From the NCBI GenBank assembly GCA_964445905.1, contig CAYUNN010000003.1, forward strand, positions 899-64,898: a stretch of 64,000 nt of DNA. The letters run 5' to 3'. The stretch is from an uncultured Candidatus Saccharibacteria bacterium. GTDB taxonomy: Bacteria; Patescibacteriota; Minisyncoccia; Minisyncoccales; JAGGXC01. The notes beneath the pieces were generated by a model. That model was not told the origin of the DNA and ran no database searches. It worked only from the letters and a program-made list of their open reading frames with translations. The position numbers and the translations under genes were made by a program. Below, piece after piece: positions 62,700 through 64,000 of the stretch. Numbering within the stretch: the first letter of the stretch is position 1; every line of letters begins with the position of its first letter.

Positions 62700-64000
62700 A
62701 TGTCTGATTCTCAAATTGATGAAATTAAGGAAAGACTAGATATTGTTGAAATTATAAAGAGCTATATCAAAGTTGAGAAATGTGGTGCTAATTATAGAGC
62801 TTGTTGCCCATTTCACTCAGAGAAAAAGCCTTCTTTTTTTATTTCTCCAAGTCGTCAAATTTGGCATTGTTTTGGGTGCTTTGTTCCGGGTTCTTTGGTA
62901 AAAACAGAAAAAGGATTGCATAAAATAGAAAACCTTGAAGTAGGCCAGAAAGTTTTGACACATAAAGGTAATTTTATGCCCATAACTAGAACTTTATGGA
63001 GGCCTTACAATGGAGAAATAATTGATATTAAAGTGAGAAAATCAAATCAGAAAGTTTCTCTTACGTCGGATCATAAGGTTTTTACAATCAAGACAAATAA
63101 TTGTAAGTACAAAAATAGAAAAACAAGATTGTGTCAATGGAATTGCAAGAAAAACTGTCCCGCTAAATATTATTTAGATTATAAGATAGAAAAAGTATCA
63201 GCTTTCCAACTAAAGAAAAACGATTATCTTCTTTATCCTATAAACCAAGAAGTTAAGGATATAGATTTTATAAATCTTAATAAATTTTATAATCGCAAGG
63301 TAAGTAATTTTGGTCCCGGTATCAAAGAAATTCCAGGTAATCTAAGATTAGATGAAAAATTACTGAAGCTAATTGGCTATTATATTGCTAAAGGAAGTAA
63401 TCATAAAGCTTATATTAGATTTAGTTTGGGAAATCATGAAGAATCTTTTGCTAAAGAAATAGTGGCCTTGACTAAAGAATTATTCGGAATAGAAGCTAGT
63501 ATTCATAAAAGGGAAGGAAAGAAGACGGGCCTAGAAATTACTGCTTGTAATTCAAAATTATCCAATATTTTTGAGAATCTTTGCGGAAAAGGAGCAGAAA
63601 AAAAACATATTCCATATGACTTTCAATACTTACCCCCCGAGAAACAGAGGATAATTCTAGAAGCTATTTTTAAAGGAGATGGTTATACTGGAAAAGTTTC
63701 TAAGTCTAAGAATAGTAAATATAAGAAAATAACTACTATTTCTTTAGTATTAGCTGAGCAAATAAGAGATATTTTGTTAAGATTAAAGATTGCCCCTGGT
63801 TTTTATAGTTTCGAGGAAGAAATTGATAAAAATAAAGTTCACCACAGAAAATCTTTTAGCGTAAATTGGCAAGAAAACTATACTCTAAACTTCTCCTCTT
63901 TTTATGAAGATCCTAATCAAAGAGTTTTGTATTGGATTGTTCCGATAAAGGAGATTAATAAAAGGCACTACAAAGGAGATACTTTTGATCTGACGGTTAC
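62700..64000 (+). CDS. dnaG: DNA primase DnaG, N-terminal zinc-finger region interrupted by an intein (partial, runs off the window)
   Basis: Own translation, not in the ORF track because there is no stop: [59 protein letters not shown], then [13 protein letters not shown]... Frame is open to 64000. Confidence 0.85.
   Translation, partial: [433 protein letters not shown]
62877..64000 (+). mobile_element. Intein (Hint domain plus LAGLIDADG homing endonuclease); C-terminal junction lies beyond the window
   Basis: Block A [20 protein letters not shown] motifs [13 protein letters not shown] (about 63360-63398) and [12 protein letters not shown] (63651-63686). Block-F-like [10 protein letters not shown] at the window end. 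Confidence 0.8.

Follow-up and report, generated by a model that had tools for sequence, protein, structure and literature searches.

A probable class-1 intein with a LAGLIDADG endonuclease domain at the fourth zinc ligand of the DnaG primase

At the end of a 64,000-nucleotide stretch of DNA from an uncultured Candidatus Saccharibacteria bacterium (contig CAYUNN010000003.1; the whole stretch is called the window below), a reading frame that begins as dnaG, the gene of the primase DnaG, leaves the primase sequence within the zinc finger and continues as something else. This raises the question of what has entered the gene, and whether a complete primase could still be made from it. A first-pass annotation of the sequence had proposed an intein starting at position 62877 and lying in the CHC2 finger directly before the fourth zinc ligand, with the missing ligand Cys as its +1 residue. 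The features on which it drew, namely the CHC2 motif, intein block A, the start of block F and a frame open to 64000, were all found in their places, and our analysis makes it very likely that this is a canonical class-1 intein with a double-motif LAGLIDADG endonuclease, carried in-frame in the chromosomal dnaG of a bacterium of the Patescibacteria/candidate phyla radiation (CPR) type, between Gly59 and the fourth zinc-ligand Cys. Its parts in the window are the following.

62700–62876, plus strand: dnaG N-extein, amino acids 1–59 (PF01807, TIGR01391, alignment to 2au3 and 1d0q)
62805–62807, plus strand: zinc ligand C36 (residue alignment to 2au3 and 1d0q)
62814–62816, plus strand: zinc ligand H39 (same alignment)
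62868–62870, plus strand: zinc ligand C57 (same alignment)
62877–64000, plus strand: intein residues 1–374 of 389, cut by the window edge (Hint_2, Intein_splicing, intein_Nterm)
62877–62915, plus strand: splicing block A; Cys1, at 62877–62879, is the first nucleophile (invariant, 91/91 inteins)
63057–63083, plus strand: splicing block B with T-x-x-H (LTSDH, amino acids 121–125; TxxH in 91/91)
63102–63158, plus strand: four-cysteine cluster, C-x10-C-x3-C-x3-C, intein residues 76–94 (in 47/91)
63363–63398, plus strand: LAGLIDADG motif 1, amino acids 222–233, with Lys231 (AAA, 63390–63392) in the catalytic Glu position
63654–63686, plus strand: LAGLIDADG motif 2, amino acids 319–329, with the catalytic Asp327 kept and G-D-G invariant in intein alignment A3
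63969–64000, plus strand: start of splicing block F, its first ten residues at 63969–63998 (continuation on contig L161, TIGR01443); its remainder and Cys+1 lie outside the window

Translation of the open reading frame (ORF) from ATG 62700 gives 433 codons without a stop up to the window edge, a run with a chance probability of ~4e-18 at the local base composition. Its N-extein forms the first part of a CHC2 zinc ribbon and holds three of the four zinc ligands. Pfam recognises Zn_ribbon_DnaG (PF01807) over amino acids 2–82 (E 8e-25) and, from residue 60 on, also Hint_2, Intein_splicing and LAGLIDADG_3, while NCBIfam places dnaG (TIGR01391) at amino acids 3–80 and intein_Nterm (TIGR01445) at 60–129. 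Residues C36, H39, C57 and C60 of the window protein fall on the CHC2 ligand positions of the solved zinc-binding domains 2au3 (Aquifex) and 1d0q (Bacillus stearothermophilus); the ligands of 1d0q, which we take to be C40, H43, C61 and C64, agree with the count in the alignment. The window therefore contains the zinc ribbon of a bacterial DnaG by both its PF01807 match and its mapped ligands, and the spacing C-x2-H-x17-C-x2-C is complete in the precursor, with Cys1 of the intein as the fourth position. After this residue 60 (TGC, 62877–62879), a typical intein block A stands in place of G-x-G-G-D.

Since the last 15 codons of the intein fall beyond the window edge, the C-terminal junction cannot be read in the window. 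An exact-match search of genome contigs with the window end gave no match, and in a metagenome scan for relatives the best match was 69% identical, with the window's own contig not among the matches. Searching instead with the neighbouring glycogen-synthase protein (61116–62597, minus strand), we matched four JGI contigs and among them found L161, the reverse complement of which is 100% identical to window positions 51116–64000 (12,885 nucleotides, 0 mismatches) and then runs beyond. On L161 the dnaG ORF comprises 980 uninterrupted codons, the first 433 residues of which are those of the window ORF. The intein occupies precursor residues 60–448 (389 amino acids) and ends at the window-equivalent position 64043, immediately followed by CGKGGDVFGFVKEIEG, the start of a 532-residue C-extein. 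The C-extein contains the DNAG_N, TOPRIM (Toprim_2/4) and DnaB-binding (DnaB_bind) domains, so that the RNA-polymerase core, TOPRIM and DnaB-binding parts of a primase are all present outside the window, and rpoD is the next gene downstream. The first-pass annotation had staked its reading beforehand on the junction and the rest of DnaG appearing once the contig was extended; L161 has both, and its junction, together with the ligand alignment to 2au3 and 1d0q, also bears out the placement of the intein before the fourth ligand with that Cys as +1.

Exact removal of the intein in silico restores a contiguous host protein. The spliced DnaG has 591 amino acids and matches TIGR01391 in one stretch (model positions 4–414) with 445.7 bits against a cutoff of 283.6, and PF01807, the family to which the exteins were to be aligned, now extends without a break over amino acids 2–95 with 121 bits. 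The excised intein in turn scores above the curated cutoffs of intein_Nterm (TIGR01445; 24.8 against 24.5), intein_Cterm (TIGR01443; 20.8 bits against 15.6) and Intein_splicing (40.9 against 35.8), as well as of Hint_2 and LAGLIDADG_3. Indeed, when the precursor is aligned to the intein-less DnaG proteins P0025 and P0063, whose N-exteins are 90% and 81% identical, the gap is exactly HCFG^[C...N]^CGxGGD. The N-terminal junction in the window reads HCFG|CFVPG, and the native sequence after splicing would be HCFG-CGKGGD.

The intein carries the residues expected of class 1: Cys1, the TxxH of block B (T63 and H66 of the intein, both invariant in alignment A3) and, on L161, a terminal Asn followed by Cys+1. 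Two stretches match Pfam LAGLIDADG_3 (PF14528), in keeping with a pair of LAGLIDADG helices in an αββαββα fold, and sequence matches to solved inteins include 2cw7 and 7qsu. For the fold, we turned to an AlphaFold2 model of P0001, the precursor of the closest database homologue (69% identical), predicted from a 32-sequence alignment with a mean predicted local distance difference test score (pLDDT) of 78 and with most of the intein above 85. In Foldseek, the top matches of this model were the inteins TliVMA, PI-SceI, PhoVMA, PI-PkoII and PI-PfuI (E 2e-21 to 5e-10, probability 1.00), followed by DnaG catalytic cores and then by the free-standing LAGLIDADG enzymes I-DmoI, I-Tsp061I and I-SceI. 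The HINT fold is thus seen in the model of the homologue P0001 and would be expected by analogy for the window protein. The model is of low confidence (pLDDT 53–60) at the four-cysteine cluster, which lies after block B and before the endonuclease domain; the cluster is a candidate for a small zinc- or metal-binding knuckle or an element contacting DNA.

Two related types of element were considered and rejected. Class 3 inteins lack the Cys1 nucleophile, use a Cys in block F and carry a WCT motif, and bacterial intein-like (BIL) domains have no endonuclease, vary at the +1 residue and reside in non-conserved secreted proteins. Both are ruled out by the presence of Cys1, a Cys-free block F (DLTVxxDHSY), an endonuclease, an invariant Cys+1 and a housekeeping host; the BIL structure 2lwy matched only weakly (E 0.03).

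With these parts, maturation is predicted to follow the usual course. A 980-residue precursor would be translated and undergo an N-S acyl shift at Cys1; Cys+1, the future fourth zinc ligand, would then attack the thioester; cyclisation of the terminal Asn would free the 389-residue intein; and an S-N shift would yield the 591-residue DnaG with the native HCFG-CGKGGD. Because the intein places 389 residues between the third ligand and the fourth ligand with its following strand, the mature zinc domain, and with it primase function, would be expected only after splicing. The first-pass annotation had reasoned likewise that the zinc finger could form only after splicing; this is an inference, and with the CHC2 spacing preserved by Cys1 the precursor might itself bind zinc, a complication to which we return below.

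The window copy is one of a large family. Complete inteins at the identical G|C...N|C site number 91, of which 19 come from metagenome loci and 72 from loci of GTDB species representatives, the latter obtained by scanning those genomes with an intein-only alignment; a protein search returned ~22 DnaG proteins with this intein, and the metagenome scan 29 loci, 19 of them with the complete element. Gly-1, Cys1, the TxxH of block B, the terminal Asn and Cys+1 are each invariant in 91 of 91 copies. The penultimate residue is Gly in 44, Ala in 25, Ser in 20, and Lys and Glu in one each, and never His. Lengths range from 382 to 396 amino acids, and the 72 copies of the genome set, in which in-frame stops were counted, contain none. 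The family falls into two subgroups, one with the four-cysteine cluster after block B (47/91, including the window) and the other with a basic, Cys-free segment there. As labelled in the databases, its members are Nealsonbacteria, Paceibacterales, Shapiro-, Magasanik-, Moran-, Levy-, Colwell-, Chisholm- and Harrison-bacteria, and further Patescibacteria/CPR lineages (Collier-, Davies-, Gottesman- and Woesebacteria), with some bins labelled Omnitrophota, Dehalococcoidales, Saccharibacteria or Gammaproteobacteria. Database annotations of the proteins vary between hypothetical, 'partial', 'LAGLIDADG endonuclease', 'intein/homing endonuclease' and 'CHC2 zinc finger domain-containing protein'. With tblastn, no further copy of the intein was detected within the window, and in the phage database it occurred in no primase; the only inteins found there were 22–30% identical and lay in DNA polymerase, portal and ribonucleotide reductase genes.

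Eight related metagenome contigs (L005, L014, L015, L024, L025 and L027–L029) end inside the intein, as the window does, and in two others (L023 and L026) the frame shifts a few codons downstream of Cys1. The element thus seems prone to breaks or errors in assembly, for which mixed intein-plus and intein-minus populations or related copies may be responsible.

Conservation and distribution of the family carry the signatures of a mobile element under constraint. Ratios of non-synonymous to synonymous substitution rates (dN/dS) of 0.08–0.15 in the informative pairs show that the inteins at this site are under purifying selection. The inteins are on average more alike than their hosts (mean pairwise identity 57% against 46% for the exteins), and in single pairs the discordance is larger: the inteins of L088 and L009 are 83% identical with exteins at 46%, and for L002 and L003 the synonymous divergence (dS) is 0.53 in the intein and 2.03 in the exteins. 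An intein-less dnaG, encoding P0025, is found on contig L081, which is syntenic with the window over genes for LemA, an M48 peptidase, MscS, two glycogen synthases, a kinase-like protein and GH57, up to dnaG. The 71% nucleotide homology between window and L081 ends at 62879, the last position of the shared Cys codon, and the proposed intein start, 62877, is the Cys1 codon. Discordance between intein and host, together with an intein-less syntenic orthologue, is the pattern expected of horizontal movement by homing. Homing driven by the endonuclease very probably carried the family into the conserved coding sequence for QIWHCFG|CGxGGD; from the flanks and the intein-less alleles, we predict the homing target to be CAAATTTGGCATTGTTTTGGn|TGCGGnAAnGGnGGnGAT, with CGTCAAATTTGGCATTGTTTTGGGTGCGGAAAGGGCGGTGACGTTTTCGGC as a candidate substrate of the endonuclease and CAAATTTGGCATTGTTTTGG|TGCGG... 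as the intein-less site.

The same intein family also occurs outside dnaG. P0006 (L165, 2325–4598) is a 757-residue non-DnaG protein with a 47% identical intein at the same CF(A)|C...N|CG site, in a C-terminal CHC2 finger that follows a 330-residue N-terminal domain, with no TOPRIM domain; the N-terminal domain gave no informative Pfam or PHROG match. Its presence here shows that the element has passed between distinct genes encoding CHC2 fingers.

The state of the window copy differs between its two functions. Both LAGLIDADG motifs that had been noted at first pass are present, but the replacement of the catalytic Glu by Lys in motif 1 had been overlooked. Lys231 aligns with Glu in the PI-PkoII motif. 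Glu is also the residue in each of the other 19 complete inteins of the metagenome alignment and, save for one copy that the pattern search did not match, in the genome-set copies; the AAA codon recurs unchanged in four independent assemblies. Hence only motif 2, with Asp327, retains an acidic residue. In LAGLIDADG enzymes the catalytic metals are bound by acidic residues from each of the two motifs, and with the acid of motif 1 lost, the domain, a family member by descent, is probably inactive as a double-strand endonuclease. All splicing residues are kept. With its endonuclease probably inactivated by the change from Glu231 to Lys, this copy is probably immobile. General decay of the intein was ruled out: four of 91 conserved columns deviate, within the family range of 0–12, and all four lie in the endonuclease domain, none at a splicing residue. 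Every contig of the window population that reaches dnaG carries the intein, and the element appears fixed in this population. A lost endonuclease combined with retained splicing is a late stage of the homing cycle.

In three further family members (L121, L143 and L150), the Asp of motif 2 is replaced by Ala (KGAG) and all splicing residues are retained; these are independent parallels to Glu231Lys in the window, again with the endonuclease probably inactivated.

Several points weigh against the class-1 intein as the full account of the locus. The last 15 intein codons and Cys+1 are outside the window and were taken from the identical contig, which belongs to a different assembly. Where a His is usual in penultimate position, the intein has Gly, and Asn cyclisation could be slower or depend on assistance. 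Splicing does occur in natural inteins that lack this His, and since it is a frequent and not a defining trait, its absence is a variant feature that gives no ground for exclusion from class 1. A LAGLIDADG enzyme in which one acidic residue is mutated can still nick or bind, which would temper the predicted loss of the endonuclease. Splicing, zinc binding and endonuclease activity are predictions from sequence for every member of the family, and whether this dnaG is the sole copy is beyond the reach of the ~72 kb covered.

The truncation at the window edge, the Lys in the endonuclease active site, the missing penultimate His and the frameshifts just after Cys1 in L023 and L026 could all be read as signs of a non-splicing remnant, in which a degenerate Hint/LAGLIDADG segment has been inserted or fused and dnaG is now a pseudogene or encodes an altered protein. 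We consider this very improbable, because on the identical contig L161 the ORF runs through 980 codons without interruption, the junction is intact and DnaG is complete, only four of 91 conserved columns deviate and none of these is a splicing residue, none of the 91 copies varies at a catalytic splice residue, and dN/dS is ~0.1. Even less credence is due to shifted boundaries, in which Cys60 would belong to the N-extein and the element would run from Phe61 to the Cys after the Asn. With a Cys at both junctions, the intein-less alleles alone cannot show which Cys is retained; however, the arrangement Cys1...Asn|Cys+1 fits blocks A and G, and TIGR01445 aligns from position 1 and TIGR01443 through the last residue. 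No known splicing chemistry would act on an element with Phe as its first and Cys as its last residue.

A different question is whether the site itself controls splicing. As Cys1 takes the fourth ligand's place in the sequence, the N-extein and Cys1 might bind zinc and delay splicing: C36, H39, C57 and Cys1 would hold the metal in the precursor and sequester the first nucleophile, making maturation dependent on zinc or redox state. The intact CHC2 spacing, with Cys1 in fourth position, would allow this, and in the mycobacterial DnaB intein DnaBi1 splicing is blocked when zinc binds directly to the nucleophile that starts the reaction (Woods et al. 2020, PMC7360933). The penultimate His is, moreover, missing from all 91 inteins at this site, while six of seven distant relatives elsewhere end in His-Asn (L154 in Gly-Asn). 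Against this, the native β-strand and helix after the fourth ligand are 389 residues away in the precursor, and a stable site may not form; the penultimate His is also absent from inteins away from zinc sites, such as the DnaE split inteins; Cys at positions 1 and +1 is the ordinary appearance of a Cys-Cys class-1 intein at any Cys site; and dnaG is presumably essential, which favours fast, constitutive splicing. Zinc gating seems to us improbable. The same holds, at similarly low probability, for the further idea that the intein has co-evolved with the zinc-finger site, so that a zinc-held precursor would couple primase maturation and lagging-strand priming to zinc or thiol-redox status, with the loss of the penultimate His and the four-cysteine cluster as adaptations. 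The canonical class-1 intein remains the reading that we prefer, and metal-dependent splicing from a structural zinc site at a splice junction is the question of wider interest that the locus raises.

How does this intein compare with known ones? The impression at first pass that DnaG is not among the classic intein hosts proved outdated, since DnaG is already a catalogued host, among the top 15 in bacteria, with 14 inteins from Actinobacteria and Proteobacteria (Novikova et al. 2016, PMC4760082, Table 1); DnaG-like (TOPRIM, IPR006171) primases of actinobacteriophages carry inteins as well (bioRxiv 10.1101/2025.01.02.630785). These inteins share the host family (COG0358) and the replisome theme with the present ones but come from Actinobacteria, Proteobacteria and their phages, whereas the present family is mainly from Patescibacteria/CPR. 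In the literature searched we found no account of an intein in the CHC2 finger and no paper on inteins in Patescibacteria. The zinc-finger site thus apparently is undescribed there, although it could coincide with that of catalogued DnaG inteins, as the insertion sites of the 14 were not compared.

The closest structural parallels are PI-SceI (the Sce VMA1 intein), the Tli and Pho VMA inteins, PI-PkoII and PI-PfuI, in which the same HINT domain is split by a two-motif LAGLIDADG endonuclease and which share Cys1, TxxH, Asn and Cys+1. They differ in host and site, are 11–16% identical over the structural alignments, and have His where the DnaG family has Gly, Ala or Ser in penultimate position; the four-cysteine cluster is an addition of the first DnaG subgroup, and the Lys for the motif-1 acid a peculiarity of the window copy. 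With DnaBi1, the DnaG intein shares an essential replisome protein as host and a catalytic Cys that zinc could capture, so that metal status may control maturation. DnaBi1, however, belongs to class 3, is a mini-intein hosted by a P-loop helicase and is inhibited by exogenous zinc, whereas the DnaG site is itself a structural zinc site, and its zinc sensitivity is hypothetical.

More distant relatives, ~27–30% identical over the full intein, occupy metal-cysteine or otherwise conserved sites of other host proteins, namely the 2-oxoacid:ferredoxin oxidoreductase β subunit, SufB and acetyl-CoA synthetase, in archaeal or proteobacterial genomes; unlike the DnaG family, six of these seven end in His-Asn. 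In two Nitrososphaera/Thaumarchaeota contigs (L153 and L154), a 27% identical intein lies at ~3001–4104 in the β subunit of a pyruvate/2-oxoacid:ferredoxin oxidoreductase, at a site, WC(A/P)G|C...N|CGDFG, that resembles the DnaG site HCFG|C...N|CGxGG. The others are in SufB (L155–L159) and acetyl-CoA synthetase (L160).

The element is thus a real, conventional intein at a well-populated site in a known class of host, and it follows the established preference of inteins for catalytic or ligand residues in replisome proteins, which makes it unsurprising to a specialist. What it adds is an insertion site at the fourth CHC2 zinc ligand of DnaG, occupied in at least 72 species-level genomes and many metagenome contigs, and an extension of intein surveys to Patescibacteria/CPR lineages that the published surveys consulted do not cover. 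The family also provides a natural series of ~390-residue Cys1/Cys+1 inteins without the penultimate His, useful for splicing studies. For genome analysis, such dnaG genes are mislabelled by annotation pipelines, and assemblies often break inside the element.

The remainder of the window is of chromosomal character, with rpoB, rpoC, ligA, ftsK and groEL. At 55756–56238 lies a 160-residue ORF of the NUDIX family, which is absent from the syntenic L081 and present in L161. Two large ORFs, at 173–3529 (1118 amino acids) and 25388–28105 (905 amino acids), remained without a Pfam match at E <= 1e-5; around them are ordinary housekeeping genes, namely rpoB, rpoC, ligA, ftsK, groEL and those for RNase J and a PilB-type ATPase.

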